Shown here: positions 3,113-40,735 of the stretch, one piece after another | Layout: each line of letters starts with the position of its first letter | How positions within the stretch are numbered: the stretch's first letter is position 1 | Assembly: GCA_963779415.1 (NCBI GenBank) | Contig: CAVZYA010000001.1 | Span: forward strand, 1,376,001-1,440,000 | From: an uncultured Acidobacteriota bacterium | GTDB taxonomy: Bacteria > Acidobacteriota > Thermoanaerobaculia > UBA5066 | Reading direction: 5' to 3' | Length of the DNA: 64,000 nucleotides | Program-made: the position numbers and the translations under genes | The notes under the pieces: model-generated | Seen by the model: the letters and a program-made list of their open reading frames with translations, nothing else | What the model was told of the DNA's origin: nothing | Database searches by the model: none

Positions 3113-3333
3113 ACCGGCTCCGACCTCCCAGAGCCGACCGCAGAATCGGGCCGCGGAAGATGCCAAAGAGCTCCTCGCCGCCGGAGGTCTCGGTCAGGAC
3201 GTGGTCGTCCTCCGTCGGCTCCTCCTCCACGGCGATGACGGATTCCTCGAAGCGGTCCTTGAATCCCCGGAGCGTCGCCATGAGTTCCCCGGGCGGGTCC
3301 CGTGCCACTCAGTATCGCGACGCTCCAGTAGAA

Positions 3334-3479
3334 GGGGTCTGAACGCTATGTAAGCATACTGCAGAAATGGGACCTGACCCCAACGCCACTTGACCCCAAC
3401 GCCACTCGCATCTTCGACGAGAGTAATCCGCCGGCCGGAACACACGAGGCGTCGCTCAGCATCATTGGGGTCTGACCCC
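3334..3479. repeat. REP-like cluster: GGGGTCTGA...GGACCTGACCCC, 2x16-bp tandem TGACCCCAACGCCACT, palindrome GGGGTCTGACCCC
   Basis: Read directly: tandem units 3375-3390 and 3391-3406; palindrome 3467-3479. Confidence 0.8.
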
Positions 3480-3487
3480 GCTTCCAC

Positions 3488-4517: not shown

Positions 4518-4559
4518 TACTTCTACGCTGTAATCTCGGCCGGGATGCAGCCAGAGCCG

Positions 4560-5741
4560 ATGGACGCGCACGCTTCTGGACCGCAGGGATGGGTGCTCTA
4601 CGACGGCGGCTGCGGCGTCTGCGCGAGGTGGGTTCCGTTCTGGGGGCCCACGCTGGGACGGCTCGGCCTCGCCGTCGCGCCGCTCCAGGAGCCGTGGGTG
4701 GCCGCCCGGGTCGGCGTCCCGCCCGACGCCCTGCTGACAGACATCCGGCTCCTGTTCCGCGATGGTCGGCAGCTCGCGGGCGCCGATGTCTATCGGTACG
4801 TGATGCGGCGACTCTGGTGGGCCACACCGCTCTACCTCCTGGCCGCCGCGCCCTGCCTCCGCCAGCTCTTCGACGGCGCGTACCGGGCCTTCGCCGACCA
4901 CCGGCACCGGATTTCCAGGGCCTGCGGCCTGGGTCCGGAGGCGCACGAAGCGTCGGATTCGCCGGTCCGTGGTGTCGTTTCCTTACCGTATCGAAGGGCA
5001 TTTCTCACCGCCGAGTGGCGCTACCTCGTCATGCTGAACTACGAGGTGGATCCCCGAATTCTCGAGCCGCTCGTCCCGATTGGCACTGTGCTCGACCTGT
5101 GGCAGGGGCGGGCGCTCGTCAGCGTAGTGGGATTCAGGTTTCTGAGGGCGCGCCTTTTCGGTGTCGCGGTTCCTTTTCACCGGAGTTTCGACGAGGTAAA
5201 CCTCCGTTTCTACGTCCGGCGCCATCTCATGGAGGACGAAGTGCGCCGCGGCGTCGTCTTCGTGCGCGAGTTCGTGCCGCGCTCGGCCGTCGCGCTCCTC
5301 GCGCGGCTCGCCTACAACGAGCCGTATCGTGTCGTCCCGATGCGAAGCACGCTTCCGGAAGCGACGGTCGAAGCCTCTGGGCGGATCGCTTATGAATGGC
5401 GGACCGGGGAGAGCTGGGAACGCCTCGGCGCGGTCGCCACAGGTGCGGGCACGGTTCCGGCGCCGGAGTCGGAGGCGGCTTTCATTACCGGACACTATTG
5501 GGGCTACACGCGGCAGCGCGACGGGGGGACCGTCGAGTACGAAGTGGCGCATCCCGCATGGCGCGTCTGGAAGGCGGAGCGTCCGGAGCTTTCCGCCGAG
5601 CACCTCGGGCTTTTTGGCGACCCCTTCGCCCGGTCCCTCTCAGGGCCGCCAGTCTCGGCTTTCGTCGCCGACGGCTCGGCCGTCGTCGTCTATCCGCCGC
5701 GACGGTTGACATGCGGCGTGGATCGCACTGGCCGAACCTGA
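4560..5741 (+). CDS. DCC1-like (DUF393) thiol-disulfide oxidoreductase fused to DUF2071/YqjF domain
   Basis: N-term LYDGGCGVC; C-term FLTAEWRYLVMLNYEVDP..FDEVNLRFYVR..FITGHYWGYT; start 4545 or 4560. Confidence 0.75.
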   Translation: MDAHASGPQGWVLYDGGCGVCARWVPFWGPTLGRLGLAVAPLQEPWVAARVGVPPDALLTDIRLLFRDGRQLAGADVYRYVMRRLWWATPLYLLAAAPCLRQLFDGAYRAFADHRHRISRACGLGPEAHEASDSPVRGVVSLPYRRAFLTAEWRYLVMLNYEVDPRILEPLVPIGTVLDLWQGRALVSVVGFRFLRARLFGVAVPFHRSFDEVNLRFYVRRHLMEDEVRRGVVFVREFVPRSAVALLARLAYNEPYRVVPMRSTLPEATVEASGRIAYEWRTGESWERLGAVATGAGTVPAPESEAAFITGHYWGYTRQRDGGTVEYEVAHPAWRVWKAERPELSAEHLGLFGDPFARSLSGPPVSAFVADGSAVVVYPPRRLTCGVDRTGRT

Positions 5742-11848: not shown

Positions 11849-12011
11849 GACGCTCTCCCCATTTCAGGCCCTGTCAGCGGCGATCCCCGGTCGGAATGTT
11901 CGCTGCGCGTAATCCCGGGCCGCCGTGATCGTTTCGATGCCAAAGCGGAGCGCATTCTACCCCGCCCGATGGAGGGTCAATCCCGGCCCACACGGCCACG
12001 TCGCCCACGGT

Positions 12012-12030
12012 GGGGTCGCGTCTCAATTAT
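12012..12030 (-). repeat. REP-motif variant GGGGTCGCGTCT
   Basis: Two mismatches to GGGGTCAGGTCT, followed by an AT-rich stretch; downstream of the kinase gene. Confidence 0.4.
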
Positions 12031-12054
12031 CTATTATAGTCACGTCGCAGGAAG

Positions 12055-14463
12055 CTATCGAGACGCGGCGCGGCGCTCCAGAAACGCCTTCTGCTTCCGG
12101 ATCGCCTCGGCCCGGATCGCCGCGAACTCGGGGGCCTTCCGGATGCCGTCGAAGAGCGGGTCGTTGTCCATGGCCGGATGGCAGAGATAGTTGCCTTCTA
12201 CGGCCCTGTTCAGCAAGCGCAGGGCCGCCTCGCCGTAGCCGCCGACGGCGAGGAAGCTCGCGCCGAAGTAATTCGGCTCCGGATCACGAATGGCGCTGAA
12301 CTGCGTCTCGACGCTCTCGGCCACGCGGTCTCGATCGGATCGAGAGCCGGTCCCGAGGATCAGCGTGGAGAATTCAAAGAAAGTGAACTCCGTTCCCTTT
12401 CCCTTACCCCTGGCGACCGCCTCGGCGATCCGGCCCTCCCTGAGCAGCAGATCCGCCTCGGCGCTTGCGGACCAGTCGGATCCGGCGTCGGGACGGAGAA
12501 AATCCCGGGCCCGGTCGTATCTGTTCAATTGCATGAACGTGATGTAACAGCCGCGGTAGTCGCGGCTCCGGGGGTCCACGGCGAGGGCCGCGTCACATTC
12601 CCGCGCGGACTCATCGAGCAGGCCGGCGTAGCGCAACACGTAGCCGAGCGTGAAGTGGGCATGCGCGCTCTCTGGACGCCGGCGGACGAGGTCGGCGGCG
12701 CGGGTATAAGCGTCCGAAAGCTCTCCCCCCTCGACCTGATCGATCGCGAGGTTGTCCGCGGCAGTGACGAGATTCGGATCGAGCGAGAGAGCCCGTTCCA
12801 ATGCCTCCCGGGAACGCTGCCGGGCGGCAGCGCCGCCTTTTCCGTAGTCCGCGTCGAGGAAATAGCGATACCCGAGCTCGTTCCAGGCTGGAGCGTACGT
12901 CGCGTCGAGCGCCACGGACTTTTCGAGAAGGGAGATGGCCTCCTTGTTGGGGAGGGGATCCCGCCCGATCGCGGTGCCCCGGAGATAGAGTTCGTAGGCT
13001 TCCGGGTTCCTGGGGCGTGTGGCCGCCTCCACCCCCCCGCCGGTGGCGCCGAGCAGCGGGAAGAGCCCCGACCTGAGCCGTTGTGAGATCTGCTCCTTGA
13101 GGGCGATCAGGTCGGTCGCGGCCGCGTTCGACGTGTCGCGCCAGAGGAGGCGGTTCGATTCGGTGTCCACGACCTCGAGGGTCACCTGCAGCTGGTCCCC
13201 CTCCCTGAGGAAGTGCCCGGTCAGAACGTCGGCGACCTGAAGCTCCCGCCCGGCCGCCTGCGGATCGACGTCGGGCTTCGCGTATTTCCGGCTGGAGGCG
13301 AAGGGGCGGATCGCGAGCTTCGGAATGTACGAGAGCGTGGTCGCGACCTCGTCGGCAAGGGCGAGGCGGAGATAGTCGGTCGAGGCGTCGGCGCTCAGGT
13401 TCTGGAACGGGAGGACGGCCAAGGTGACCTGACCGCGAGGGGCGGGAACGCTCCCTCGCCGATGGGCGAACCACCAGCCGGCGATGGCCGAAAGGCCGAG
13501 GATCACGACGCCGGCGAGGGCCGGCCGCACCCATGGGCGACGACGAACGGCAACTTCCGGAGCGGCGATTTTCTGGGCGGCGCTCGCACGGCCCGATTCG
13601 GAGTCGCGCTTCAGGCGCTTCAGGTCTTTCCTGATCTCGGACGCGCTCTGGTACCGCAGCTCCCGGTCCTTCTCGAGGGCCGTGCTCACGATTCTCGAAA
13701 ACTCCTCCGGAAGCTCGGGGTTCAGCCGCACGGGCGGCGTCGGGGCGCGGTTGAGAATCGCATCGAAGATGACGGCGGAAGCGTGGCCGGGGAACGGCTG
13801 CCGGCCGGTTGCCATCTCGTAGAGGACGGCGCCGAAAGAGAAGAGGTCGGTCCGCGGATCGAGCGCCTCTCCGCGCGCCTGCTCGGGGGACATGTAGGCC
13901 ACGGTGCCGAGGGTCGTGCCCGGGCTCGTGAGGTGCACTTCGGCGGCGGCGGTCGCGAGTGCCGAGGCCACGGGGGCCGGGGCGGCCTCGGCCGCGGAGA
14001 GCTTCGCCAGGCCGAAGTCGAGGAGCTTCGCCTCGCCGCGCCGCGTCACGAAGACGTTCGCCGGCTTGATGTCGCGGTGCACGATGTTGCGATCGTGCGC
14101 GGCCTGGAGCGCGTCGGCGATCTGGATCGCGAGATCGAGCAGGACGCCGGGCGGGAGCGCCCCCGCGGCGAGGCGGTCGCGAAGCGTCTCTCCCTCGAGG
14201 AGCTCCATGGCAATGAAAGGACGCCCTTCGTGCTCGTCGACGTCGAAAATCGTGCAGATGTTCGGGTGCGAAAGGGACGAGGCGGCACGCGCCTCCCTCC
14301 GCATCCGTTCCAGCGCCTGCGGTTCGTGCGGGAGGTCATCCGGGAGGAACTTCAACGCGACGCGACGGCCGAGCTTCTGATCCTCCGCCGCGTAGACCAC
14401 CCCCATGCCGCCTCCTCCGAGCTTCTCCAGGATGCGGTAATGGGAAATCGTCTTACCGGTCAT
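12055..14463 (-). CDS. Hanks-type Ser/Thr kinase with TM segment and TolB-like/TPR C-terminus
   Basis: [36 protein letters not shown]; LAVLPFQN module; TPR-like helices. Confidence 0.93.
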
Positions 14464-14484
14464 GAAGACGATCCCTTGGCTACA

Positions 14485-14512
14485 GGGGTCAGGTCTTGCA
14501 CCTGTAGTCTAC
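14485..14512 (-). repeat. Inverted repeat at the 3' end of the RAYT gene, GGGGTCAGGTCTTGCACCTGTAGT
   Basis: Reverse complement of 15483-15505 with 2 mismatches; also enclosed by the CTACAGG/CCTGTAG stem. Confidence 0.85.
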
Positions 14513-15471
14513 TCGCCGACGCCATCCGTCAGATCCCTGAGCCGCCCCTTCAGCTCCGCGTTCTTCCGAAGGACGGCCTCCCCTTCGGCGGCGAGCCGCG
14601 AGGCCTGCGCCTCTCCCACACCAAGGAGAGCCCCGATCTCCGCCAGCCTGACGAGACCCCGCCTCCGAAGTATCAGCGCCACGGCCTTCCGCTCACCGGA
14701 GAGCAGGCGCGTGCGGCTCGCCAGGCTCTTGCCGTCACATCCGAGGGCCTCGAGGCACTCCTCGAACAGCTCGCCCTTGGGCCGAGGTGCGCTCTGGCCC
14801 TGGGGCCTTGGCACCTCCCGCCCCTTTCGTCCGGTGGCCCCCCGCCGGAGGGACTCCTTTCGAAACTCCTCCGATCCGAGGTAGATCTGACCCTGGACCT
14901 CTTTCCACGGCTCGTAGCCCCCGGCCGCCCCTTCCGCCACGAAACGCCGATAGGCCACCACCGCCTTGGCCCGCGTCCTGCCGAACTGATCGAGCGTCCA
15001 GGCCGTCTCGAGCCACTCCGGGGCTTCCGTCAGCCCCGCCGTCGCGCGGTAGCTGCTCCAGCGCCACTCCTTCGCCCCCCGCACGACTCCGGCCCGGACG
15101 GGGTTGAGGACGACATACCGGCAGAGCTCGAGAAGGTGGGCTTCCTTCTCGACGAGGATGGCCTTGAAGCGCCCCTGGAAGAGATGACCGGCGCGCCTGT
15201 GGGAACGATTGAAGCCCTGCGTATAGATACCGTTGAGCTGCCGCATTCCACGGGAGAGGGTCGGCTCCGGCGTTTCGAGCAGCAGGTGATAGTGGTTTCC
15301 CATCAACACGTATGCATGGAGCCGCCAGCGGAAGAGGGAGACGGTCCGGCAGAGGACGGCGAGAAACCGATGCCGGTCGCCGTCGTCGCGAAAGACGTCC
15401 CGCCGCTCGTTCCCGCGGCAGGTGACGTGCCAGACGGCTCCCGGAAATTCCAGTCGAAGAGGTCGGCTCAT
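14509..15471 (-). mobile_element. RAYT-like Y1 (HUH) tyrosine transposase with C-terminal helical extension
   Basis: HVTCRGN, AYVLMGNHYHLL (HUH), GHLFQGRFK, YVVLNPVRAG (catalytic Tyr), WRWSSY; no tnpB. Confidence 0.92.
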
Positions 15472-15482
15472 GCCATGAGCAT

Positions 15483-15540
15483 ACTATAGCTGCAAGACCT
15501 GACCCTGGCGCGCTTTGGCGCGCTTGACCCTGGCGCGCTT
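15483..15540 (+). repeat. Inverted repeat at the 5' end of the RAYT gene plus tandem TGGCGCGCTT / TGACCCTGGCGCGCTT repeats
   Basis: ACTATAGCTGCAAGACCTGACCC then TGGCGCGCTT x2, GACCC, TGGCGCGCTT. Confidence 0.85.
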
Positions 15541-15811
15541 CACCGGGGGCCGACCGCCCCCGCCTAGGGCGGTCAGCATCCGGTATCGACGTCCGCCGTT
15601 CGGAAGCCCTTTTCGAGGAAGGCATTCAAGGCCTCGAACCAGCGCCGCCAGGTCGCTCCCCACCGCTCCATGCGACTGCTCGCGCGGCCATCGTCGCCCC
15701 CGACCCTGGATTCCCGCATGGCGTTATTCCCCCCGGAGAAAGAATACAGGCGTTCGGGACTCGCGTGCCAACGCGTCGTTCACCCGGCGGTCGGTGAATG
15801 CCGCCGTCCCG

Positions 15812-16465
15812 TCAGAGCTTCAGGCCGAGGAGAAGGCCGTCGGGAGTCGGAATGCAGGCGGTAGCGAAGGCGCGGGCGGACTCTTCGTGGAAGCGGCGCA
15901 TCGCGGCCGCCTCGGCGCTCTTTCCCATCAGCTTGCCGAAGAGGTAGACGTTGTCGGCGAGGAGGAGGCCGCCGGGCCGGAGGGCCTTCGCGGCCCACCG
16001 GCCGTAGGCGTCGTAGTTCCCCTTGTCGGCGTCGATGAAGACGGCGTCGAACGGCGCGTGACGATCGAGCGACGGGAGGACGGCGAGGGCCGCCCCTTCG
16101 AGAACCGTGGCACGGTCGGAGAGGCCCGCCGATTCGAGGCTTTCGCGCGCCACGGCCGCATGCTTCGGATCGGCCTCGATCGTCCAGAGCCGGCCCTCGA
16201 CGGGGAGCGCCCGCGCAATCCGGATCGCGGAGTAGCCGGCCAGGGTTCCAATCTCCACGACGCGCCGCGCTCCGGCGAGCCCGAGGAGCAGCTCGAGCAG
16301 CCGCGCCTCGGAGACGCCGAGATGGATCGGCGGCATCCGATGCCGCCCCGGGGCGTCGAACGCACTCTGGAGCGCCGCGTCGTGCGGCGCGTGAAGCTCC
16401 TCCAGCCAGCGGAGGATCGGCGGCGTGGCGTACGCCTCCCCGCCGCGTGAGCGGGGGTTAGCCAT
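15812..16465 (-). CDS. O-methyltransferase (caffeoyl-CoA OMT-like family)
   Basis: VEIGTLAGYS, FDAVFIDADK, LRPGGLLLADN. Confidence 0.9.
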   Translation of the reverse strand: MANPRSRGGEAYATPPILRWLEELHAPHDAALQSAFDAPGRHRMPPIHLGVSEARLLELLLGLAGARRVVEIGTLAGYSAIRIARALPVEGRLWTIEADPKHAAVARESLESAGLSDRATVLEGAALAVLPSLDRHAPFDAVFIDADKGNYDAYGRWAAKALRPGGLLLADNVYLFGKLMGKSAEAAAMRRFHEESARAFATACIPTPDGLLLGLKL

Positions 16466-19875: not shown

Positions 19876-20964
19876 TCATCGGACGGCCGGCTCCAGGAGC
19901 GTGAGCGTTCCCGCGTCGCCGTCCAGCTCGGCCATCGCTCCGATCGGGAGCGTGGCGTTTTCCGGAACATGCCCGAAGCTGAAGCCCGCGACGACCGGGA
20001 TGCCGAGCTTCCCGAACCGGTCCGCGCAGACTTCCTGCCAGGTCCAGGTGCCGAGGCCGCTAAAGGAGGGCTTGTAGAGCCCCGGGCGGCACCCCGCGAA
20101 TTTTCCGAGCGCGACGCCCGCGAGCGTCGAGAGCTTTCCCGAGAGGAGGAATCCCGTCAGCCACCGGTCCAGCCGGTAGGGGTCTTCCTCCACCTCCTCG
20201 AGGAAGAGGATCCGCCCGGCGAGCGGCGGCTCGTACGGCGTCCCGAAGAGAGGCGCCAGAACGCTGATGTTCCCGCCGACGAGGCGCCCTTTTCCTTTTC
20301 CCGGAGCCAGCTTGTAGATCCGGGTGTCCCGCTCGCCGCCGCTGCGCCGGCCCGGCTCTCCGGTGGCGTTCTCGGCGAGCTTCCCGGTCTCGCCGTTCAT
20401 GACGACGCGGCGGAGATTCTCCAGCGCGTACTCGTTCTGCGCCCCGGCCATCGGGCCATGGAACGTGACGAGGCCCGTAATCCGGTGGATCGCGTTGTGG
20501 GTCGCCGTGATGTCGGAAAAGCCGATGTAGGGCTTCGGGTTCTTCCGGATCGTCTGGTAGTCGAGGTACGGAAGGATCCGGGAGGAACCGTAGCCGCCGC
20601 TGATGCACCAGACGCCGGTGACGGCAGGGTCGGCGAAGGCGGCGTTCACGTCGGCCGCGCGGTCGGCGTCTCCGCCGGCCAGGTAGTAGGTCTTCTTCGC
20701 CGCGTTCGGCATCACCTTCGGGACGAAGCCCATCGCGGCCACCGCTTCGGCGGCGATCTCGTTCGACTCGTACTCGTACGACGGCGACGCGGGGCGGACG
20801 AGGGCGACCGTGTCTCCCTTCTTCAGCGCCTTCGGGAAGATCGGTTCGGGTGCGGACCCGGCAGGGGCGGCGGGCGCGGCGGACGAGGCGCGCGAAAGCC
20901 CGAGGAGCGAAGAGACGGAGGCGACTGAGACTCCCCCAAGAAACGAGCGCCTGCTGGTCGCCAT
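19876..20964 (-). CDS. S66 LD-carboxypeptidase with Tat signal
   Basis: MATSRRSFLGG; GGYGSSR, GFSDIT, GGNI, LEEV, FGH. Confidence 0.9.
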   Translation of the reverse strand: MATSRRSFLGGVSVASVSSLLGLSRASSAAPAAPAGSAPEPIFPKALKKGDTVALVRPASPSYEYESNEIAAEAVAAMGFVPKVMPNAAKKTYYLAGGDADRAADVNAAFADPAVTGVWCISGGYGSSRILPYLDYQTIRKNPKPYIGFSDITATHNAIHRITGLVTFHGPMAGAQNEYALENLRRVVMNGETGKLAENATGEPGRRSGGERDTRIYKLAPGKGKGRLVGGNISVLAPLFGTPYEPPLAGRILFLEEVEEDPYRLDRWLTGFLLSGKLSTLAGVALGKFAGCRPGLYKPSFSGLGTWTWQEVCADRFGKLGIPVVAGFSFGHVPENATLPIGAMAELDGDAGTLTLLEPAVR

Positions 20965-21067
20965 GCGGTGGATTCTAACCGCCGCCCGGTGCGTCCCCCA
21001 TCGAAGGCGGGCCGAAACGGAAGGGCGGCGAAGGGGATTCCGACTGGTCGTATCCCGGTCGCTCCCT

Positions 21068-21601
21068 TCAGTCGTCGGCGCCGGCCGGCGTCGGCGCGGC
21101 GGACGCCCCGGACGCCGCCATCGCGTGGACACCGAACGCATGGACGAGCTGCCCTCCCTGGTGGGCCGTGTTGGTCAGGACGGCCGCCCCGGCCCCGTAG
21201 AAGATCAGAAACGCGACGTGAAGGGCGACCATCGAACGCCGCTCGAGCTCCTTCCTGAAGACGAGGGGACCGAAGACGATGACGCCGAAGATGACCGTCA
21301 GCGCCGTGAAGAGTACGCGCGTCGCCTCGGCGAGCGCTTCATGGCGCTCCAGGGCCTGGTTGATCTGGGGGCTCCGCTCGGCCAGACGCCCCGCGGCCTC
21401 GCCCGTCGGCACGGCGACGTAGATCGCGATCGTGCCGAGGAGCATCAGGAGAAGCGCGGCCCGGAGAAAGGCGGGACCCGAGGCGCGGCGGACGAGCCCC
21501 AGGACGACAAACAGGGGGGCCACGAGGAGGAGCGCGATCGGGAAGTGGGTCACGAGCGGGTGGAGGCCATCCCAGGTCGGAAGCGGCGGCAGTGCGAGCA
21601 T
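21068..21601 (-). CDS. DUF2231 membrane protein
   Basis: LHPLVTHFPIALL, HEALA, TAHQGGQLVHAFGV. Confidence 0.8.
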   Translation of the reverse strand: MLALPPLPTWDGLHPLVTHFPIALLLVAPLFVVLGLVRRASGPAFLRAALLLMLLGTIAIYVAVPTGEAAGRLAERSPQINQALERHEALAEATRVLFTALTVIFGVIVFGPLVFRKELERRSMVALHVAFLIFYGAGAAVLTNTAHQGGQLVHAFGVHAMAASGASAAPTPAGADD

Positions 21602-21629
21602 CTTTCGTCTCTCCGTCAGGTTGAGAGCC

Positions 21630-21656
21630 CGCCCCGGCCCCTTCCGGGCCGGGGCG
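21630..21656. other. GC-rich intergenic hairpin between rubrerythrin and DUF2231
   Basis: CGCCCCGGCCC-cttcc-GGGCCGGGGCG; no U-tract. Confidence 0.5.
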
Positions 21657-21694
21657 TCTCGGGCTCCCGGGGATCGTCCGGCACGTGGCCGGGG

Positions 21695-22330
21695 CTATCC
21701 GACGAGGACGTACTTGTCCTTCGGGTTGAAGCAGGAGATGCACTTCTCGAAGTTCAGGTTCGTCGTGGTGTAGCCGCAGACCGTGCAGACGTAGAAGGTC
21801 TTCTTCGCCGTCTTCCAGGATTCGAGGTTCTGGGACGCGTCGCCGTAGAGCGCGGCGTGCTCGGCCTCGGCCGTCTTCGCGTAAGTGAAGGTCTGCAGGG
21901 CGTCGCGGTTGTTCTCGGCGCGAGCCTGCTTGATGAAATCGGGGTACATCGTGTCGCGCTCGTAGGTCTCGCCCGCGATCGCCGCCTTCAGGTTCTCCTG
22001 CGTCGACTTCACCTCGGGAGTCTTGATGTCGGCCTTCGGGACCGCGTTGAGCTTCTTGATGACGGCCGCATGGCTCGCGGCGTGGATCTCCTCCGCCCGG
22101 GCCGCGGCCCGGAAGAGCCCGGCGACGGCAGGGTACCCGTCCTGGTCGGCCTTCTTGGCGAACGCCAGGTACCGGGCGTGTGCGTTGCTCTCCCCGTCGT
22201 AGGCCGCCTGAAGGTTCGTCAGCGACTTGGTTTCCGGGGCTGGTTTCGTCATCTCGGCGGACGCGCTGAACCCGAGCCCCATGGCGAGGGCGAGGGCGGC
22301 GCCGATGAACGGGAGTTGCGGATACCGCAT
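21695..22330 (-). CDS. rbr: rubrerythrin with N-terminal signal peptide
   Basis: GESNAHARY, EEIH, GETYE, EAEH; C-term CTVC...CISC. Confidence 0.9.
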   Translation of the reverse strand: MRYPQLPFIGAALALAMGLGFSASAEMTKPAPETKSLTNLQAAYDGESNAHARYLAFAKKADQDGYPAVAGLFRAAARAEEIHAASHAAVIKKLNAVPKADIKTPEVKSTQENLKAAIAGETYERDTMYPDFIKQARAENNRDALQTFTYAKTAEAEHAALYGDASQNLESWKTAKKTFYVCTVCGYTTTNLNFEKCISCFNPKDKYVLVG

Positions 22331-22374
22331 TGAAGATTTCCTCCTTCAGGCCGGACTGGCCTCGCCTCACGGGG

Positions 22375-22391
22375 AGCAACAGCGATGCCTC
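22375..22391 (-). promoter_or_regulatory. sigma-54 -24/-12 promoter for rbr
   Basis: Minus strand AGGCATCGCTGTTGCT = GG-N10-GC; adjacent to an NtrC-family gene. Confidence 0.7.
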
Positions 22392-22462
22392 GCACCCGCG
22401 GCTCCCCAAGTGTTTGCCGCGGAGCCGCTTCCTATCGCGTCGAAAGCCCCAGCCCCCTCGGA

Positions 22463-22512
22463 CGTTCGAGAATTTCGACAGCCGGCCACCGTATCGTCGA
22501 AGGATTTCGACG
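22463..22512. promoter_or_regulatory. putative enhancer (UAS) sites for the sigma-54 activator
   Basis: Palindrome CGTCGAA-ggat-TTCGACG (22495-22512) and related GTTCGAGAATTTCGACA. Confidence 0.5.
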
Positions 22513-22528
22513 TCCCGGGGCGATCCGG

Positions 22529-23929
22529 TCAATTCGGGGAGCGAGGCCCGAGACCGTGCTTGCGGATCTTGTAGGCGATGTCGCTTCGGGAGATTCCCAG
22601 ACGGCGCGCCGCCTCGGCCTGGATCCCGGAGGCCGACTCGAGGGCGCGCCCCACCAGGCCCTTCTCCACCTCATCCAGCATCCGCCTCAGATCGACGGAG
22701 GGCGGAAGGGAGGAGAGCCACGCCTCGGCGCCCGCAGGAGACGGGACGCCGCTTCGGCCCGAAGCCCCGAGCGCGATCGGGAAGTCATCCGGCTGAAGCT
22801 CCGGCCCCGACGCGAGGATGCAGGCCCGCTCGACGATGTTCCGGAGCTCCCGCACGTTTCCGGGGAAATCGTAGTTCGAGAGGGCTTCGAGCGCGGCGGG
22901 CGAGATCCGCCGCGCCGGAGCCTTCAGCGCGAGAGCCACGCGCGCCAGAAGGCGGTCGACGAGGAGCGGGAGGTCCTCGAGCCGCTCGCGCAGCGGCGGA
23001 ACGAGCAGCGGGACGACGGCGATCCGGTAGTAGAGGTCCTCCCGGAAAAGTCCGTCGCGGACGCGCCCGGACAGGTCCCGGTGCGTCGCGACGAGAAGGC
23101 GCACGTCGACCTTTCTCGGAACGGTCGTGCCGACCCGTACGACCTCTCCGTCCACGAGGACCCTCAGGAGGCGCGCCTGCATCGCCGGGGCCATCTCACC
23201 CACCTCGTCGAGGAAGAGCGTTCCGCGGTGGGCCGCTTCGAAGAGTCCCTGCCGCGGCCGGTCCGCTCCGGTGAAGGCTCCCCGCTCGTGTCCGAAGAGC
23301 TCGCTCTCGAGCAGCGTCTCCGTGAAGGCGGCGCAGTTCACGGGGACGAACGGATGGAGTGCGCGCGGGCTGATCTCGTGGAGGGCCCGGGCGACGAGCT
23401 CCTTCCCGACACCCGTCTCGCCCGTGATCAGGACCGTGGCGCCGGTCGGACCGACGCGCGCGATCATCTCGCGGACCCGCCGCATCGCGGGACTCTCGCC
23501 GACGAGCTCGGTCCCCACCCTGAGTTGCCGGACGGCGCCTTTCAGGTTCTCGTTCTCGCGGACGAGGGCGCTCCGCTCCGACGCGCGACGTACGACCGCG
23601 CGGACGGTCTCCGCGACGAACGGCTTCGTGATGAAGTCGAACGCCCCCTCCTTGAGCGCCGCCACGGCGAGCTCCAAGGTGGCGAAGGCCGTGACGATGA
23701 CGACGGGGAGCGCCGGGTCGGCCTCGCGCGCGGCCGCGACGAGCGACAGCCCTTCGCCGTCGGGCATCTTCTGGTCGGTGATGACGAGGTCGAAGGGCCT
23801 CGTCTCGAGGAGTCGCCGCGCCTCCGCGACGCCGCCTGCCTCCACGGCGACGTGGCCGTCCTCGCCAAGGATCGCCGCGAGGATACGGCGCACGGAGACT
23901 TCGTCGTCGACGAGAAGGACTTGCGCCAT
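22529..23929 (-). CDS. sigma-54-dependent response regulator (NtrC family)
   Basis: REC domain (VDDE, DQKMP); GETGVGKE, GAFTGA, FPGNVREL; Fis HTH. Confidence 0.95.
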   Translation of the reverse strand: MAQVLLVDDEVSVRRILAAILGEDGHVAVEAGGVAEARRLLETRPFDLVITDQKMPDGEGLSLVAAAREADPALPVVIVTAFATLELAVAALKEGAFDFITKPFVAETVRAVVRRASERSALVRENENLKGAVRQLRVGTELVGESPAMRRVREMIARVGPTGATVLITGETGVGKELVARALHEISPRALHPFVPVNCAAFTETLLESELFGHERGAFTGADRPRQGLFEAAHRGTLFLDEVGEMAPAMQARLLRVLVDGEVVRVGTTVPRKVDVRLLVATHRDLSGRVRDGLFREDLYYRIAVVPLLVPPLRERLEDLPLLVDRLLARVALALKAPARRISPAALEALSNYDFPGNVRELRNIVERACILASGPELQPDDFPIALGASGRSGVPSPAGAEAWLSSLPPSVDLRRMLDEVEKGLVGRALESASGIQAEAARRLGISRSDIAYKIRKHGLGPRSPN

Positions 23930-23932
23930 CCG

Positions 23933-25219
23933 TCATCCCGCCGGACCGGGCAGGGCAAGCTCGAAGCGGATCCGCCCGGATTCGTTGGAGCCGAGCTTCA
24001 CGTCGCCGCCGTGCGCTCGCGCGATGCTCCGCGCCACGGCCAGCCCGAGGCCGGTCCCCCGGGGCTTCGTCGTGAAGAAAGGCTCGAAGAGATGGGCCCT
24101 CGTCTCCGGAGGAATCGGATCGCCTCCGTTTTCGACGCAGAGAATCGCGCGGCCCGCCTCGCCTCTCGCCCCGAGGGTCACGACGCCTCCTTCGGGGCTC
24201 GCCTCGAGGCCATTGACGACGAGATCGAGGAGAGCCTGGTAGAGCTGGAACGGATCGGCGAAGAGCGCTCCGTCGGCCGGGGCGTCGACCCGGAGGGTCC
24301 GCCCGAGCTCCGACGCGCGCGCCCGCGCCACGTCCGCGACGTACGAGAGGCAGTCCGCGATCGAAAGCTCCTTCTTCTCCGGCTCCCGCACGTGCGCGTA
24401 GGCGAGGAAGTCGGTCGTCAGCTTCTCCAGCCGCGCGGCCTCCGAGAGGACGATCTCCCGCATCTCCCCGGCCACGGGGTCTTCAGGCGGGCGCTCCTTC
24501 ATCAGCCTCGTCGAGCTGGCGATCATGGCCACGGGATTCCGGATCTCGTGGGCGATCGCAGACGACAGCCGACCGAGCGCGGCGAGCTTTTCCTCGCGCA
24601 CGAGGAGGTCCTTGGTCCTCTCCAGGGCGTCGAGGCTCTCCTGGACTCGCGCCCGCTCGCGCCGGATCTGGCCGGCCAGGGCCGCCACGACGATCGCGAT
24701 CACGAAGTAAGTCAGGGCGAGGGTGGCCGCCTCGTAGAACTCCAGCATCCTCGGGGGCGGGTGCTGCCGGTAGTAGAGCCAGAGCTCGACGAAGGTCAGC
24801 GCGACGGCCGCGCCCGCGACGGAGAGGACGCCGGCGAGCCGGAACCGGAAGGCGGCGGCCGCGATCGGAAGGACCATCAGCACCGTGTAGTGGCTGTCCT
24901 CGAACCCCCCCAGAAGCGCCACCCCGAAGGCGAGGAGAAGCTTGACCCAGACCGAGGCCCACCCGAAGAGCCGCACCCGCAGCCCGCTCAGCGGGCCCTT
25001 GAGCCCCTGGAGGGCGAGAAGCTCGAGCGTCTGGAGAAGGAAAAACGCCCCGATCGCCCAGAGCATCCGCCGGGAGGGGACGCCGAGCATCGGGCTGAAG
25101 CCCACGTGGATGACGAGCAGCGCCGCGAGGACCCCGAGGCCGAGGATCGTCAACGTCGACTCCTGGCGGCGGAACGAGAGAACGTCTGCGTCGGAGGAGG
25201 TCTCGAACGTCGGGAGCAT
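23933..25219 (-). CDS. membrane sensor histidine kinase
   Basis: Several TMs; AHEIRNP; FFTTK..GTGLGL. Confidence 0.93.
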   Translation of the reverse strand: MLPTFETSSDADVLSFRRQESTLTILGLGVLAALLVIHVGFSPMLGVPSRRMLWAIGAFFLLQTLELLALQGLKGPLSGLRVRLFGWASVWVKLLLAFGVALLGGFEDSHYTVLMVLPIAAAAFRFRLAGVLSVAGAAVALTFVELWLYYRQHPPPRMLEFYEAATLALTYFVIAIVVAALAGQIRRERARVQESLDALERTKDLLVREEKLAALGRLSSAIAHEIRNPVAMIASSTRLMKERPPEDPVAGEMREIVLSEAARLEKLTTDFLAYAHVREPEKKELSIADCLSYVADVARARASELGRTLRVDAPADGALFADPFQLYQALLDLVVNGLEASPEGGVVTLGARGEAGRAILCVENGGDPIPPETRAHLFEPFFTTKPRGTGLGLAVARSIARAHGGDVKLGSNESGRIRFELALPGPAG

Positions 25220-25274
25220 TCGTGGATCCTCCCGCGATTCTAGCGACCGAACGCGACGACCTGCCGGGAGCGCC

Positions 25275-27905
25275 TCAGGGAGGAAACGGGGACGGCGGAA
25301 GTGGGATGACCATCGGCAGGTAGCTCCCGTCGCCCGTCCCCTCCCCGGGCACGGCCCCGTCGTTGACGACGCCGTAGACGAAGATGGGCATCACGCCGAA
25401 GGACCCCGAACCAGAAGTGACCCTGACACGGACATAACCGCTGCTCACCCCGAAGCCCGCAAGGATCGAACTAAACTGAACCCAGTCGGGCAGCATTGGG
25501 TCCAGCGAGCAGGTCCGGGTGCCTACGAGTGTCCCGAAATGGCCGTCGAAGACGTCCAGCGAGAGATCCAGAAGTTGGTAGACGCCCGAAGGTATTCCTC
25601 CAGTGGGTGGGTCTATGACGCCAACGGCCAGATTCGAGCGGCTCAGATCATCCTGCCGGAGTCCGAAGATCCAGGCCTCCGGAAGGGGGGACTGCCCCGG
25701 AGTGAGCGCCGGGTATGCGACCCCGAAGCTCCCCCCGGAGGGCGGCGCGGACCACGTGCGAGCTCCCGCATGGAGCTCGGCCGTGTAGATGTTCGAAAAG
25801 ATCTGAAGCGGGCCTGACGCCGGCGCCGTCACGAGATATGAGACGACGTCGGGGATGAACCTCTGCTCGTGGGGCTGGAGAACGACGTCTTTGTCGGAAC
25901 TCGCATCTCGAAATGACACCGTGATTGCTTCCTCGCCCGAATTCGTCAGAACGAGATCCGTCACGAACCCGGCCGTGTGCGCCGCGACCGGCACCATCAG
26001 TCCCGAGACGGCCGGACCGGAGGAGGTGGGAGCGACGAACGACCCATCGTTCGTCACGTTGTCGTTGACGACGGCGTAAGCGTAGAAGGGGTCGACGCCG
26101 CCGATTCGTTCGATAGTCGCCCAGCCGTTCGACATCCCGGCCTGTGAGAGGACGTGGTTGAGCTGGAGCCACTGGCCGGGCCCGAGGCTCACGGGCGCGA
26201 GTTCGGCCGTCCGGGAATCGCCCGGGTCGCCGCTCGTCAAGGTCACCTTCAGCGTGATGGTCGACGTCCCCGCCGGATCGCCGGCGCTGAGAAGGGCGAG
26301 GTTGGTCCGGAAGGCGGCGTTCTCGCGAAGGCCGAAGAGGCGGACGGAAGACTCCGGCATCTCGTTTGGTCCGACGGCCGGATACGCGAGTCCCGCCTGT
26401 CCGGGTCCCGAAGGGGCGGTCGTCCTCGCCGCGGCGTAGACGACGTCTGAGTTCGAGGCGCCGGTGGCCCGGATCCGGAGCGTTCCCCCCTGCTGTCCCG
26501 ATGTCGGGATCGGAATCCCTTTCTGGCGAAGGTACGCGATGGCGTCCGGAATCGTCTTCTGCAGCCCCGCACCGAGCGCGTCCGACACGGTCCCGCCGCC
26601 AGACGCCCCGATCGACTCCGCCGGCGTGTAGGTCAGGTCGAGCGATACCGGGGTGGTGCCACGGTTAGCGAGTGTCAAGTCGGTCGTGTATCGGGCTCCG
26701 CCGCTGCCGGCCACGTCGACGACGGCGGGAACGGTCAGAACGCTGCTCGGCCCGGCGGCGTCGGCAACCTGGTAGAGAACGCCGCCACCGTAGTCGAGAA
26801 GATAGAGTTCCCCTGCTTCGTCCTCTCCGAAGCTCGAGATCGCGAAGCCCGCGTCGAGAAGCACGCGGCTCTCCCAGCCCGCCGCGGTCCGTCGAAGGCC
26901 CCGGATCCGGCCGGTGCAATAGTCACCGTAGAAGTAGATTCCCTCGAGTCCTGCGTACGAGAGGCCGCGGTAGACGAAGCCGCCCGTCACTGCGCAGTCG
27001 CCACCTGAATGCGTGTATTCAGTGACGGGCAGGACGAGACCGGTCGGATCGCAGTTCGGCGGGTCGTAGCAGGCGGTCCCCTCCATGATTCGCCAGCCGT
27101 AGTTCTCGCCTCCCGCGCTCGATGCCGGCTGGAAGTCGACCTCCTCGCGGGAATCCTGTCCGACGTCGGCGATGTAGAGGTCTCCCGTCTTCCGGTCGAA
27201 GGAGAAGCGCCACGGGTTCCGAAGCCCCAGCGCCCAGATTTCGGGCCGATACGCTGCATTCGAGACGAAAGGATTCGACGGCGGGACGCCGTACGTCGGC
27301 CACGCCCAAGGATCGATCCGCAGCATCTTCCCGAGGAGGCTCGCCGGGTTCTGGGCGTAGTTCTCGGGGTCCCCCTCCGAACCTCCATCCCCCATCCCGA
27401 TGTAGAGGAAACCGTCGGGGCCAAAGGCGATCTGGCCTCCGTTGTGGTTGGCGTAGGGCTGAGCAATTCTGAGAATGATCTGTTCGCTTCCAGGGTCGAC
27501 CAGATCGGGGGTCCGCCAGTCAACGTAGAACTGTGAGATCTTCGTGTCGCCGTTCAGGTCGGTGTAATCGACTAAGAAATACCCTGGCGTGCGGAAGCCG
27601 GGGGGGAAGGCGACGGAGAGAAGTCCCCTCTCGCCGCAGCAGCTCACGCGGTCCGTGATGTCGAGGAACGGCGTAGAAACGAGCGTTCCGTTCTTCACGA
27701 TCCGGATCCGGCCCTGCTGCTCCACGACGAAGAGCCGACCGCTCCGGTCGCCCGCGTTCGTCACGTGGACCGGTTTCGAGAAGCCCGAGAGCTTCGGGAC
27801 GAGAGCGATCTGAGGCCACCCCTGCGAGGTCGCGCTTCCGGCGGCCCCGAGCAGTACGCCGATGAGCGCGGCCTGGGAGAGGCGCGACCCGTGGTTCGAC
27901 GTCAT
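25275..27905 (-). CDS. PQQ-dependent sugar dehydrogenase family protein with duplicated C-terminal module
   Basis: ERGLLSVAF, NHNGGQIAFGPDG, GLRNPWRFSFD, NYGWRIMEG; C-term module present twice. Confidence 0.88.
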   Translation of the reverse strand: MTSNHGSRLSQAALIGVLLGAAGSATSQGWPQIALVPKLSGFSKPVHVTNAGDRSGRLFVVEQQGRIRIVKNGTLVSTPFLDITDRVSCCGERGLLSVAFPPGFRTPGYFLVDYTDLNGDTKISQFYVDWRTPDLVDPGSEQIILRIAQPYANHNGGQIAFGPDGFLYIGMGDGGSEGDPENYAQNPASLLGKMLRIDPWAWPTYGVPPSNPFVSNAAYRPEIWALGLRNPWRFSFDRKTGDLYIADVGQDSREEVDFQPASSAGGENYGWRIMEGTACYDPPNCDPTGLVLPVTEYTHSGGDCAVTGGFVYRGLSYAGLEGIYFYGDYCTGRIRGLRRTAAGWESRVLLDAGFAISSFGEDEAGELYLLDYGGGVLYQVADAAGPSSVLTVPAVVDVAGSGGARYTTDLTLANRGTTPVSLDLTYTPAESIGASGGGTVSDALGAGLQKTIPDAIAYLRQKGIPIPTSGQQGGTLRIRATGASNSDVVYAAARTTAPSGPGQAGLAYPAVGPNEMPESSVRLFGLRENAAFRTNLALLSAGDPAGTSTITLKVTLTSGDPGDSRTAELAPVSLGPGQWLQLNHVLSQAGMSNGWATIERIGGVDPFYAYAVVNDNVTNDGSFVAPTSSGPAVSGLMVPVAAHTAGFVTDLVLTNSGEEAITVSFRDASSDKDVVLQPHEQRFIPDVVSYLVTAPASGPLQIFSNIYTAELHAGARTWSAPPSGGSFGVAYPALTPGQSPLPEAWIFGLRQDDLSRSNLAVGVIDPPTGGIPSGVYQLLDLSLDVFDGHFGTLVGTRTCSLDPMLPDWVQFSSILAGFGVSSGYVRVRVTSGSGSFGVMPIFVYGVVNDGAVPGEGTGDGSYLPMVIPLPPSPFPP

Positions 27906-27963
27906 CGCGGAGTCCTCCCGGACGGAGTGTCTCGAGCCACGGACTATCTTTCGACGTGGGCCG

Positions 27964-33385: not shown

Positions 33386-33421
33386 CATGACGACACGACG
33401 TCATCTTCACGAGACGGAATC

Positions 33422-33610
33422 ATGAAGAACATCACGGAGCTCGTGTCGTTCGCACTCGCCGCGCTCCTGCTTCTCTACGCAGGCCTGTCGCCGGCCCTTG
33501 AAGGCCGCCCACCCAATGTCGTCTTCCTCAGCCTCGCCGTCCTGTCCGTCGTCCTTTTCATCGCCATGTTGAAGAAGGCCAACCGTGATTCGCGGCCTCG
33601 GAGTCAGTGA
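33422..33610 (+). CDS. small two-TM hypothetical protein
   Basis: 62 aa, two hydrophobic segments, GGA upstream. Confidence 0.5.
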   Translation: MKNITELVSFALAALLLLYAGLSPALEGRPPNVVFLSLAVLSVVLFIAMLKKANRDSRPRSQ

Positions 33611-33711
33611 TTCGTTCCGTGGAAGTCCGACCGCTGCGTGTCTTCCCGCAGCGGTGAACGAGCGCACCGAAGAGCCAACCGACTTCTAAACCGACCTCGT
33701 CCGGCCCCGAC

Positions 33712-38460: not shown

Positions 38461-39948
38461 ATGGGCAAGCTGACCGGATTTCTCGAGTACCGGCGCGAGT
38501 CCCCCGCCTCCCGCAAGCCCGAGGAGCGGGTGAACGACTGGGAAGAGACGCACCTCCACGTCCCCGAGGAGACCCTCCGCCGGCAGGGGGCGCGCTGCAT
38601 GGACTGCGGGACGCCCTTTTGCCACACCGGAAAGCTCATCGGCGGGATGGCCTCCGGCTGCCCCGTCCACAACCTGATCCCGGACTGGAACGACCTGATC
38701 TGGCGCGGCCAGTGGAAGGAGGCGGCCATCCGCCTCCACCAGACGAACAACTTCCCCGAGTTCACGGGGCGCGTCTGTCCCGCTCCGTGCGAAGGCTCCT
38801 GCACGGTCGGCCTCGACGGCGACCCCGTAACGATCAAGTCGATCGAGATGGAGATCGCCGACCGCGCCTTCGAGGAGGGATGGGTCGACGCGGGGGTCCC
38901 CGCGACGCGGACCGGGAAGAAGGTCGCGATCGTCGGCTCCGGCCCGGCGGGGCTCGCGGCCGCCTCGCAGCTGAACCGGGCCGGGCACACCGTCACCGTC
39001 TTCGAGCGGGCCGACAGGGTCGGCGGCCTCCTGATGTACGGCATTCCGAACATGAAGCTCGAAAAGAAGCTCGTCGAGCGGCGCGTCCGGCTGATGGCCG
39101 ACGCGGGGATCCGCTTCGTCACGGGGGTCGAGATCGGGCGCGACGTCCCGTCGCAGAGCCTCCTTTCCGACTGGGACGCCGCCGTCCTCTGCTGCGGCGC
39201 CGCCCAGGCGCGGGAGCTTCCGATCGAGGGAAGGAGCCTCTCCGGCATCCACCTCGCGATGGAGTTCCTCCACGCGAACACGAAGAGCTTCCTCGACTCC
39301 GGCCACGCCGACGGCGAGTTCATCAGCGCGAAAGGCAAGCAAGTCGTCGTGATCGGCGGCGGCGACACCGGGACCGACTGCGTCGGGACGGTCCTGCGCC
39401 ACGGCGCGGAGAGCATCGTCCAGCTCGAGATCCTCCCCCGCCCGCCCGAGAGGCGCGCCCCCGACAACCCGTGGCCGCAGTGGCCGAAGACCTACAGGCT
39501 CGACTACGGGCAGGAGGAGGCGGCCGCGCTGCAGGGCTCGGACCCGCGCCTCTACTCCATCCAGACGAGGCGCTTCGTCGGCGACGCGGAAGGACGCGTC
39601 CAGGAGGTTCACACCGTCGACATCGACTGGCGGCGCGACGCCGAGGGGCGGATCCACCTCGTCGAGATCCCGGGGAGCGAGCGCGTCTTCCCGGCCGAGC
39701 TGGTCCTCCTCGCCCTCGGCTTCCTCGGCCCCGAGAGGAAGGGGCCCATCCTCGACCTCGGCGTCAAGCTCGACGAGCGCGGCAACGTCGTCGTCGACGG
39801 CGAGCGGATGACCAGCGTCCCCGGCCTCTTCGCCGCCGGCGACATGGTCCGCGGCCAGTCCCTCGTCGTCTGGGCCATCGAGGAAGGCCGCAAGGCCGCC
39901 CGCGGCGTCGACAAGTACCTGATGTACGGGGAGACCTACCTCCCCTGA
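38461..39948 (+). CDS. gltD: glutamate synthase small subunit
   Basis: [43 protein letters not shown]. Confidence 0.95.
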
Positions 39949-39998: not shown

Positions 39999-40256
39999 AT
40001 GAGTCGAGCCGCTGCGAGAAAGCCTCGAGCCTCCGTGAGCGAAACCGCACTAGATCGAGCTCTCCACGGCGAGCGGGTCGTCCTGCGTCAGGGGAACAGG
40101 GCTGTTGCCGCCGTCGTCCCCATCGCGGACCTCCGGCGGCTGCAGAAGCTCGAAGACGAACAGGACCTCAAGGACATCCGCTCCGCGCGCCTCGAGATGA
40201 AGCGGAAGGGGACGGTCCCCTGGGAAAAGGTCAAGACGGACCTCGGGCTGAAGTAG
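39999..40256 (+). CDS. type II antitoxin (Phd/YefM-like)
   Basis: GERVVL...VAAVVPIADLRRL...VPWEKVKTDLGL; directly upstream of the toxin. Confidence 0.8.
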   Translation: MSRAAARKPRASVSETALDRALHGERVVLRQGNRAVAAVVPIADLRRLQKLEDEQDLKDIRSARLEMKRKGTVPWEKVKTDLGLK

Positions 40257-40259
40257 TTC

Positions 40260-40520
40260 GTGGCGGCCTACCGGCTGGAACTCTCACCCCGGGCCATCCG
40301 TGACCTGAAGAAGCTCCCTCCCCAGGTCCAAGTCCGCCTGAAAGGGCACATCGACGCTCTCGCAGCGAACCCGCGTCCGCGCGGCATCTCGAAGCTCAAA
40401 AACGACGTTAACGCCTACCGCATCCGCGTCGGCGACTACCGCGTCCTCTTCGAGATTCACGACCCGGTGCTTCTGGTGATCGTCCTGAAGATCGCCGATC
40501 GAAAGGAGGCCTATCGGTGA
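40260..40520 (+). CDS. RelE/ParE family toxin
   Basis: YRLELSPRAIRDLKKL..NPRP..YRIRVGDYRVLFEI..IADRKEAYR. Confidence 0.9.
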   Translation: MAAYRLELSPRAIRDLKKLPPQVQVRLKGHIDALAANPRPRGISKLKNDVNAYRIRVGDYRVLFEIHDPVLLVIVLKIADRKEAYR

Positions 40521-40573: not shown

Positions 40574-40608
40574 GGACCTGACCCAATCGTCCGTGACCCT
40601 ATCGTCCG
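40574..40608 (+). repeat. REP motif GGACCTGACCC with 2x15-bp tandem TGACCC(A/T)ATCGTCCG
   Basis: Units 40579-40593 and 40594-40608. Confidence 0.8.
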
Positions 40609-40609
40609 C

Positions 40610-40693
40610 GTCGTCTGGGCCATCGAGGAAGGCCGCAAAGCCGCCCAAGGCGTCGACAAGAACCTCATGTACGGGGAGACATATCTGGCGTGA
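40610..40693 (+). pseudogene. second copy of the gltD 3' end
   Basis: Encodes [27 protein letters not shown] versus glt[28 protein letters not shown]. Confidence 0.9.
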
Positions 40694-40735
40694 GGAGCTG
40701 ACTTGTTGAGGACTCGGCCACTGAATCGCAACTTA

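Follow-up and report, generated by a model that had tools for sequence, protein, structure and literature searches.

RAYT (REP-associated tyrosine transposase) or TnpA-REP enzymes, together with their repetitive extragenic palindromic (REP) and REPIN sequences, have reportedly been described by Nunvar in 2010 and by Bertels and Rainey in 2011. A class of RAYT-like genes flanked by terminal inverted repeats (TIRs) has been known since 2013; these units were termed TIRtrons and their proteins TIRYTs, and the repeats share the motif GGGGWSAS (Di Nocera, De Gregorio and Rocco 2013, BMC Genomics 14:522). According to the available part of that account, TIRYTs form a sharply defined Acidobacteria group with several members per genome, each with different repeats, and the repeats of some members only belong to moderately abundant families found as singles, dimers and groups. 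A subsequent classification, in the part available to us, equated TIRYTs with subclass 2.1 of TnpAY1, comprising long proteins with a C-terminal helix-turn-helix (HTH) like Bac_DnaA_C, HTH_23 or HTH_28 and with no REP sequences nearby (Quentin, Siguier, Chandler and Fichant 2018, BMC Genomics 19:475). The present study examines an HUH/Y1 gene in a 64,000-nt stretch of an Acidobacteriota genome (the window, whose coordinates are used throughout unless a contig is named). The source genome, G000, comprises 4.36 Mb in three contigs with 68% G+C and is 92% complete. We assign positions 14486-15505 (minus strand; 1,020 bp), hereafter element E1, with good confidence to the TIRtrons: a complete unit of 5' repeat, TIRYT gene and 3' repeat in which the gene is framed by its own TIRs. 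This is not a new kind of system, and every defining TIRYT/TIRtron feature tested was found at the locus.

The element and its protein

The TIRYT gene (14509-15471, minus strand) encodes 320 amino acids and has as its neighbours, both on the minus strand, genes for a Ser/Thr kinase (12055-14463) and an O-methyltransferase (15812-16465); no other convincing gene lies between these two. The 3' TIR of the TIRYT gene, GGGTCAGGTCTTGCACCTGTAGT (14486-14508, plus), abuts the stop codon and has its tip at 14486, while the 5' TIR, GGGTCAGGTCTTGCAGCTATAGT (15483-15505, minus), has its tip at 15505 and ends 12 nt before the ATG. The two repeats are 23 nt each and identical at 21 of 23 positions, directly framing the open reading frame (ORF), as stated in the original prediction of an HUH/Y1 gene between 23-bp imperfect inverted repeats. 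Both tips, GGGGTCAG in the 3' repeat and AGGGTCAG in the 5' repeat, match the class motif GGGGWSAS. Allowing up to three mismatches, the 23-mer occurs five times in the window (any match in 0 of 100 shuffles), and the 11-mer AGACCTGACCC with up to one mismatch occurs ten times against 1.47 expected (at least ten in 0 of 100 shuffles). One of these ten matches, at 14883, falls within the TIRYT ORF and looks like chance.

The same prediction had drawn on the action of RAYT enzymes on REP hairpins, a type to which the present repeats do not belong. None of the nine single-strand DNA folds surpassed those of shuffled sequences (z from -0.97 to +1.5), and a stem, of 5 bp at most, was formed in only some copies, which rules out REP-type palindromes. 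Because the repeats are not REP hairpins, E1 is regarded as a TIR-type relative (TIRYT/TIRtron) and not as a strict RAYT. An Rfam scan of the whole window returned no match at gathering score, so the repeat motif is not a known RNA. A sigma-70 promoter was also considered for the repeat and rejected, as the hexamer spacing, judged by eye, does not fit.

The protein matches Pfam Y1_Tnp over residues 14-120 (E 6e-11) and NCBIfam NF047646 (REP_Tyr_transpos, "REP-associated tyrosine transposase") with 82.5 bits (cut-off 80). Across 25-27 aligned homologues (33-79% identity), H60 and H62 of the HUH motif as well as N123 and P124 are invariant, and Y119 is kept in at least 90%; judged by these alignments, the HUH motif and putative catalytic tyrosine are intact in the RAYT-like core. 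The alignment profile matches the DnaA DNA-binding domain 3pvp (E 3e-6, residues 230-319; also 8btg, 1l8q and 1j1v) and, weakly, Escherichia coli TnpA-REP 4er8 (E 0.008). The AlphaFold2 model of the protein (pLDDT 86.6) has E. coli TnpA-REP 4er8_A as its best Foldseek match (target TM 0.74), and its C-terminal part matches 3pvp_A (target TM 0.72, rmsd 2.9 over 90 columns); Foldseek also lists the IS200/IS605 TnpA structures 2vic, 2xqc and others, which have the HUH/Y1 fold. With the single sequence as query, Pfam returned only a weak AbiEi_4 HTH match for the C-terminal HTH (E 0.0017). Based on the profile and structural matches, the protein is therefore interpreted as a RAYT-like Y1 (HUH/Tyr) core, a conserved middle region and a C-terminal DnaA-domain-IV-like HTH. 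The part of the original prediction that called the enzyme RAYT-like and not an ordinary insertion sequence (IS) thus stands as to the RAYT-like nature (82.5 bits versus 80; 4er8 as best fold), and fails as to the strict REP type. Domain make-up and repeat motif fit subclass 2.1, to which the length of the protein, its predicted DnaA-like C-terminal HTH and the lack of REP hairpins nearby all correspond.

The repeat family within and beyond the genome

The exact 11-mer GGGTCAGGTCT is present in 31 copies in G000 compared to one for the reversed control, and a profile search recovered 37-38 repeat copies, 32 of 38 outside crudely called coding DNA in a genome that is about 81% coding overall (binomial p 7e-18). 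All copies in the window are likewise intergenic on the ORF/Pfam map, as had been predicted. Using tblastn, three further full-length TIRYT paralogues were found, 59-73% identical in protein, in addition to fragments. These belong to elements of about 1.02 kb with inverted repeats at both ends (C2:1647062-1648083, C2:1690832-1691846 and C2:1273410-1274436). The tip is shared by all four elements of G000, while the inner repeat sequence is specific to each, giving every element its own repeat subtype. With about 37 copies over at least four subtypes, the high copy number of strict RAYT/REPtron systems is not reached. Outside the four elements there are 33 copies, and homology lengths determined by BLAST with lenient scoring indicate that 29 of these share just 19-46 nt (median 27) with an element end; the other four carry 95-198 nt of gene remnant. 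Most solo copies are thus discrete units, since 29 of 33 share so short a stretch, and not random-length remnants.

Many copies carry a tandem duplication outside the tip, here called the stutter, comprising the last 6-7 tip bases (GGGGTCA) and 8-10 flanking bases in units mostly of 15-17 nt. It was found in 13 of 37 copies, compared to 9 of 1615 GGGTCA sites elsewhere and 90 of 20000 sites taken at random (p 1.5e-17), and in other species at 8 of 113 tips versus 45 of 20000 random sites. The inner boundary of the duplication always lies directly after GGGGTCA, a fixed position that suggests the likely nick site. At E1 a stutter was read by eye outside the 5' repeat (15500-15540), where the tip TGACCC and the flank GGCGCGCTT are repeated; this instance is not among the scored copies. 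The 5' flanks of E1 and of a second element, E2, are alike for about 9 nt past the tip, and the mobile unit may for this reason extend slightly beyond the repeat.

In the window, seven of the nine further places originally listed hold real copies (3351, 12012, 40574, 40729/40758, 43815, 51006 and 60824), whereas those at 4508 and 53750 are weak. An E2-type solo repeat at 3351-3382 (feature 3338-3400, minus) is accompanied by a tip-only piece in inverted orientation at 3338 and by a stutter of 16 nt to 3400. The variant-type solo repeat GGGGTCGCGTCTCAATTATCTATTATAG (GGGGTCGCGTCT...) at 12012-12039 (plus) faces the 3' end of the kinase gene with its inner side, and lies between the point where the alignments of the related genomes G002, G004 and G005 end (11866-11880) and that where the alignment of G003 starts (12038). 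A partial repeat tip, GGACCTGACCC at 40574-40584, with a 15-nt stutter (40574-40605, minus), is followed by two tandem E4-type solo repeats (40729-40748 and 40758-40777) with a 17-nt stutter (40729-40800, minus). Solo repeats of the E1 3' type are present at 43815-43844 (plus) and at 51006-51028, the latter within a feature at 50983-51028 (minus; 46 nt, 85%) that includes about 20 nt of TIRYT gene 3'-end remnant. An E1-type solo repeat at 60824 (60801-60853, plus) is preceded by a perfect 15-nt stutter, with AGTGCTCCGGGGTCA present twice. The 4508 site has only TCTGACCC, which the orthologous site in G003 has too. The prediction that the core blocks at 16-40 kb are free of repeats is correct as to the copies, none of which lies there, but the stretch is not uniformly core, as G003 lacks window 20851-27963 at the syntenic place.

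Tip sequences also occur as tip-to-tip palindromes of the form GGGGTC-N-GACCCC, of which there are four in G000 and two in the window: GGGGTCTGACCCC (3468-3480), a tip-only piece, and GGGGTCCGACCCC (53750-53762). The four sites are C1:249557, C1:1379467 (window 3468), C1:1429750 (window 53750) and C3:256568; three are preceded by ATAAT(T/A) and two extend to palindromes of about 27 nt. They may represent footprints, targets or repeat tips that abut each other.

Scanning one genome per species yielded 370 relatives, of which the best 80 loci (33-81% identity) were examined; these derive from Acidobacteriota, Desulfobacterota, Nitrospirota, Scalindua and others. In the 120 nt preceding the start codon, GGGGTCA is present in sense orientation at 60 of the 80 loci, and TGACCCC is present at or just after the stop codon at 49 of 76, in 23 of which the stop codon is formed by its first three bases. 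Both tips are found at 40 of 76 loci, where the background expectation is 0.011 per 120-nt stretch, and homologues from different phyla retain the tip GGGGTCAGGTCT at their two ends. Enrichment of the 11-mer was seen in the genomes of 18 of 21 relatives (controls 0-2), a tally that includes the unpublished G013 and G018, counted there only. In G019, a member of the same order, most 11-mer copies are inverted doublets 45-90 bp apart, resembling REPINs or miniature inverted-repeat transposable elements (MITEs). About 17 such pairs were seen (e.g., C1:73560/73638, C2:1446397/1446471 and C5:51424/51498) alongside one full 1,020-bp element (C1:432470-433500), and the pairs are a REPIN-like expansion of mini-elements. 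Of the 8,000 candidates scored, matches at E <1e-10 were obtained for more than 7,900 protein clusters. Many close homologues lie on contigs of 1.0-1.3 kb, about one element length, as is expected where a repeat interrupts metagenome assembly.

The distance of GGGGTCA upstream of the ATG has modes at -37 and -65. Such fixed distances, together with the DnaA-like HTH, would be in keeping with a domesticated DNA-binding or nicking protein for which GGGGTCAGGTCT is an operator or promoter element and the solo copies are regulatory and not mobile. A subgroup of homologues, about 51-54% identical (L014, L016-L019, L022-L025, L027-L030, L034 and L053), is moreover syntenic with the same downstream small membrane-protein gene, with the stop codon within TGACCCCATAAT and the 5' tip about 65 nt upstream, and looks like a vertically inherited, possibly domesticated TIRYT. 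As an explanation of the present system we consider domestication improbable. The motif is also inverted at the 3' end (49 of 76 loci), solo copies are found between convergent genes, and the stutter, mini-elements and empty sites (see below) point to DNA rearrangement.

Empty sites, cargo and variable DNA

In G003, which belongs to the same genus (about 77-90% DNA identity to G000), about 35 bp separate the kinase gene from the O-methyltransferase gene, and a 1.34-kb block, window 14476-15811, is absent. The same arrangement is seen in a 14-kb contig from sequencing run X4, in which window 14475 is joined to 15812 with 16 other letters between; the runs contributed small shares (at most 0.11) and contigs only, and runs X1-X3, with a gap over 14474-15009, are uninformative. 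A comparison of related genomes for empty and filled sites, proposed at the outset, has therefore yielded two cases without the E1 block. The missing block comprises E1 together with flanking DNA, of 10 nt at one end and 306 bp at the other. The longer flank (15506-15811) is passenger DNA inserted along with E1, containing a 32-aa ORF (15573-15671, minus) and a terminator-like hairpin. Part of it (15540-15683) has an 82% identical counterpart in G003 (C1:600527-600670), which lies about 5 kb away in that genome and has no repeat beside it. At the same place G002 is without the kinase gene and without the element.

Empty sites in relatives, TIRs and four copies per genome are also what an ordinary autonomous IS would leave, as are the many homologues on contigs of 1.0-1.3 kb expected of assembly-breaking repeats. 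On this explanation the solo repeats would be decay remnants and the link with variable DNA would reflect where insertions are tolerated. We judge it unlikely, given that near-identical copies are missing, a target duplication was not found and solo copies are mostly discrete 19-46-nt units. The doublet mini-forms of G019 also disagree with it, and each paralogue keeps its own repeat subtype, like RAYT/REP pairs. Since the paralogues are only 59-73% identical, there is no sign of recent self-copying.

The repeats had been predicted to mark strain-variable DNA. A gap test confined to the window was underpowered (1 of 10 repeat gaps versus 13 of 40 others aligned through, by hand count; p 0.25), and 12 solo loci and four random control windows were therefore added. 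The former were 12 of the 33 solo copies, isolated, outside the window and chosen before viewing the relatives, each examined with 3 kb around it in five congeners. None of the 12 was aligned through by the five congeners. In four random 20-kb windows, crude intergenic gaps of at least 40 bp were aligned through in 22 of 30 cases and those of 40-400 bp in 11 of 16 (Fisher p 1e-5 and 2.5e-4, respectively), with controls that depend on a crude ORF caller, DNA-level BLAST, metagenome-assembled genomes 65-99% complete and relatives that are not independent. Based on the contrast of 0 of 12 with 11 of 16 we consider the link with variable DNA to be real, as predicted. At L104, L105, L107, L108 and L111 the flanks are close together in the relative and G000 is 0.65-1.0 kb longer, and at most remaining solo loci conservation ends no more than about 30 nt away from the repeat. 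Although an alignment could be interrupted by the repeat itself, the extra DNA is 20-30 times the repeat length.

Several derivatives combine repeats with partial or foreign genes. A 272-bp mini-element (C2:1645680-1645951) is internally deleted and retains, between a 5' and a 3' repeat, TIRYT codons 1 to about 45 followed by about 70 nt. A cargo-bearing mini-element (C1:1171015-1172414) shares this frame, with 77-79% identity at both ends, and into it 1.15 kb encoding an AbiEii-family toxin gene and an upstream small ORF is inserted at about codon 28. A two-ORF unit, which starts TAGAAT-N7-ATG and ends CTATAATTGATAATTGAGACGCGACCCC, is present at three unrelated loci in G000, G003 and G005, among which homology stops at the repeat tip; its closing repeat is identical at 27 of 28 positions to that at window 12012-12039. 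The G000 site of the unit is empty and repeat-free in G004 and G002. In the window, a Phd-like/ParE pair is followed by the repeat tip at 40574, and elsewhere an insertion consisting of a 182-aa ORF and a repeat separates genes that adjoin each other in G003, G004 and G006. Pfam identified no family for the two-ORF cassette, the 182-aa inserted ORF or the Phd-like ORF; the second ORF of the cassette we take, as an impression only, to resemble a nucleotidyltransferase.

These derivatives would fit a RAYT-repeat system that regularly captures and moves accessory genes as repeat-marked cassettes, an HUH counterpart of integron cassettes. The AbiEii toxin pair within a mini-element frame, the two-ORF unit ending at the same tip at three loci, the Phd-like/ParE pair, the 182-aa ORF, the 306 bp of passenger DNA that arrived with E1 and the absence of all 12 solo copies from shared DNA would each be accounted for. 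It nevertheless remains a doubtful interpretation. The examples amount to a handful, toxin-antitoxin pairs are independently mobile, the majority of insertions lack a repeat on at least one side and the passenger homologue in G003 has no repeat beside it. Gene blocks downstream of the gltD gene also have another order in G007, and not as repeat-bounded units.

The gltD region bears on a further explanation, namely that the repeats are passive, being dispersed 25-30-nt homologies or the sites of other elements that collect in recombination-prone regions. Synteny with G003, G004, G009, G010 and G011 breaks at the gltD stop codon (39948), and the repeat just downstream of gltD, also present in G003 and G007, differs among G000, G003 and G007. 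Diverged gltD 3'-end duplicates (88% and 66%) point to Campbell-type or homologous events. On the other hand, a stutter with a fixed boundary after GGGGTCA needs a site-specific process, and a 25-30-nt homology of about 90% identity is short as a substrate for RecA-dependent exchange; passive repeats are in our view distinctly unlikely.

Further observations were made in the same region. The last 65-88 nt of gltD are present three times (39861-39948, 40606-40693 and 50707-50794; 88% and 66% to the native end), and the copy at 40609-40693 is nearer to the gltD end of G007 (92%) than to that of G000. The Phd-like gene (40118-40268) is partly duplicated at 50840-50990 and cut off there by a solo repeat. 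The 3' end of gltD looks like a place where insertions, Campbell-type or island-like, occurred serially without a visible integrase. An integrase-driven island was rejected, there being no integrase among the ORFs of 40.8-50.8 kb, and a composite element at 43815-51028 moving as a single unit found no support, the gene blocks being ordered differently in G007.

Other features of the window were recorded in addition. Window 33388-33676 (about 280 bp; 62-aa ORF at 33422-33610), between an amidohydrolase gene and gltB, is 88-92% identical to unrelated places in G002, G003 and G004, with 31 bp at the syntenic spot in G003, and looks like a small mobile or repeated unit without a TIRYT repeat. An FG-GAP/SLH protein gene (51476-53713) has three 234-nt tandem repeats at its 3' end and many paralogues in G000, G003 and G004 (67-83% identity). 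A 120-nt stretch at 3145-3267, within a doubtful 89-aa ORF, recurs at C3:257525 of G000 and on C13 of G007 (86% each). The DCC1-like/DUF2071 fusion ORF at 4545-5741 is aligned by G003 through its DCC1-like part only (to 4928), and in G005 the DUF2071 part lies directly after an aldehyde dehydrogenase gene, indicating that this gene has been rearranged within the genus.

Possible mode of action and comparison with known systems

A scheme for the action of the TIRYT can be outlined in steps of differing probability. The HTH domain probably binds the double-stranded repeat. The HUH/Tyr core might then nick the tip directly behind GGGGTCA, where the tandem duplications of tip plus about 9 nt of flank have their fixed inner boundary, although we rate this step at somewhat below an even chance. 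Whether the enzyme acts in trans on repeat-ended DNA, with elements, mini-elements, solo repeats and at times cargo ended by repeats being moved or rearranged, we consider evenly balanced as regards any mobilisation at all. Cargo capture as a regular function is doubtful; that the enzyme moves or captures neighbouring genes, as originally proposed, is plausible. Taken together, the TIRYT and its repeats could constitute an HUH-based platform that shuffles small accessory modules through duplex binding by the DnaA-like domain, nicking after GGGGTCA and joining of DNA ended by cognate repeats, a complete scheme that we regard as unlikely. If it were true, intergenic DNA would receive toxin-antitoxin pairs and small genes as mobile "gene plus 3' repeat" units, and tip-plus-flank duplications and tip-to-tip junctions would be their traces.

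A number of results weigh against the interpretation of E1 and of its mode of action given here. Reading of the sequence revealed no target-site duplication (about 9 nt) at E1 and E2, and neither activity nor expression nor an excision product was observed. With 59-73% protein identity the four paralogues are old, and the homologue subgroup with the same downstream gene occupies a conserved locus that fits a domesticated, immobile gene. Where an insertion has an empty site, its repeat lies internally or at a single edge and not at both, and the borders of the 20851-27963 indel have no repeat, showing that some indel borders are repeat-free. The coarse controls and the window-only gap test described above count on the same side.

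E1 itself is a routine member of its class. The TIRYTs, however, are a very large family yet barely studied; in the literature searched the name is used by two works only, which in the part available do not describe a mechanism. G000 and its congeners offer handles on this family, including empty sites, a position where nicking is probable, derivatives that carry cargo or are non-autonomous and a measurable link with variable DNA, through which a role of TIRYTs in moving DNA, and in shaping accessory gene content, becomes testable.

Among known systems, RAYT/TnpA-REP resembles the present one in its catalytic fold (TM 0.74), in having one enzyme per cognate repeat family and in the inverted repeats flanking the gene, and the doublet mini-forms of G019 recall REPINs. 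The differences are the absence here of palindromic hairpins or structural signal, tens of copies instead of hundreds, and a protein twice as long with an added domain predicted to bind double-stranded DNA. Strict RAYT/REPtron systems have a GTAG-tagged REP hairpin recognised as single-stranded DNA and usually >100 repeats per genome, neither of which was found in G000. The TnpA proteins of IS200/IS605 elements (IS608, ISDra2) share the HUH/Y1 fold; these elements have subterminal hairpins, near-identical copies and a TnpA of about 130-150 aa but no TIRs, unlike E1, which has TIRs, no hairpins and paralogues 59-73% identical. Integron cassettes (attC with IntI) are an analogy, in which a small gene plus one short 3' repeat is found in variable arrays or sites. 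IntI is nevertheless a tyrosine recombinase, another enzyme class, the repeats here are not folded attC-like sites, and Pfam detected no integrase family or attI in the window (51 window ORFs scanned). The closest likeness is to the TIRtrons, with a RAYT-like Y1 gene, non-REP TIRs, the GGGGWSAS motif and a dispersed family (31 exact 11-mers, 37-38 profile hits). Relative to the available part of the 2013 TIRtron account, which contains no empty sites, variable-DNA link, cargo derivatives or tip-plus-flank duplications, the present system adds empty sites, the stutter, cargo-bearing mini-elements and a quantified link with variable DNA.

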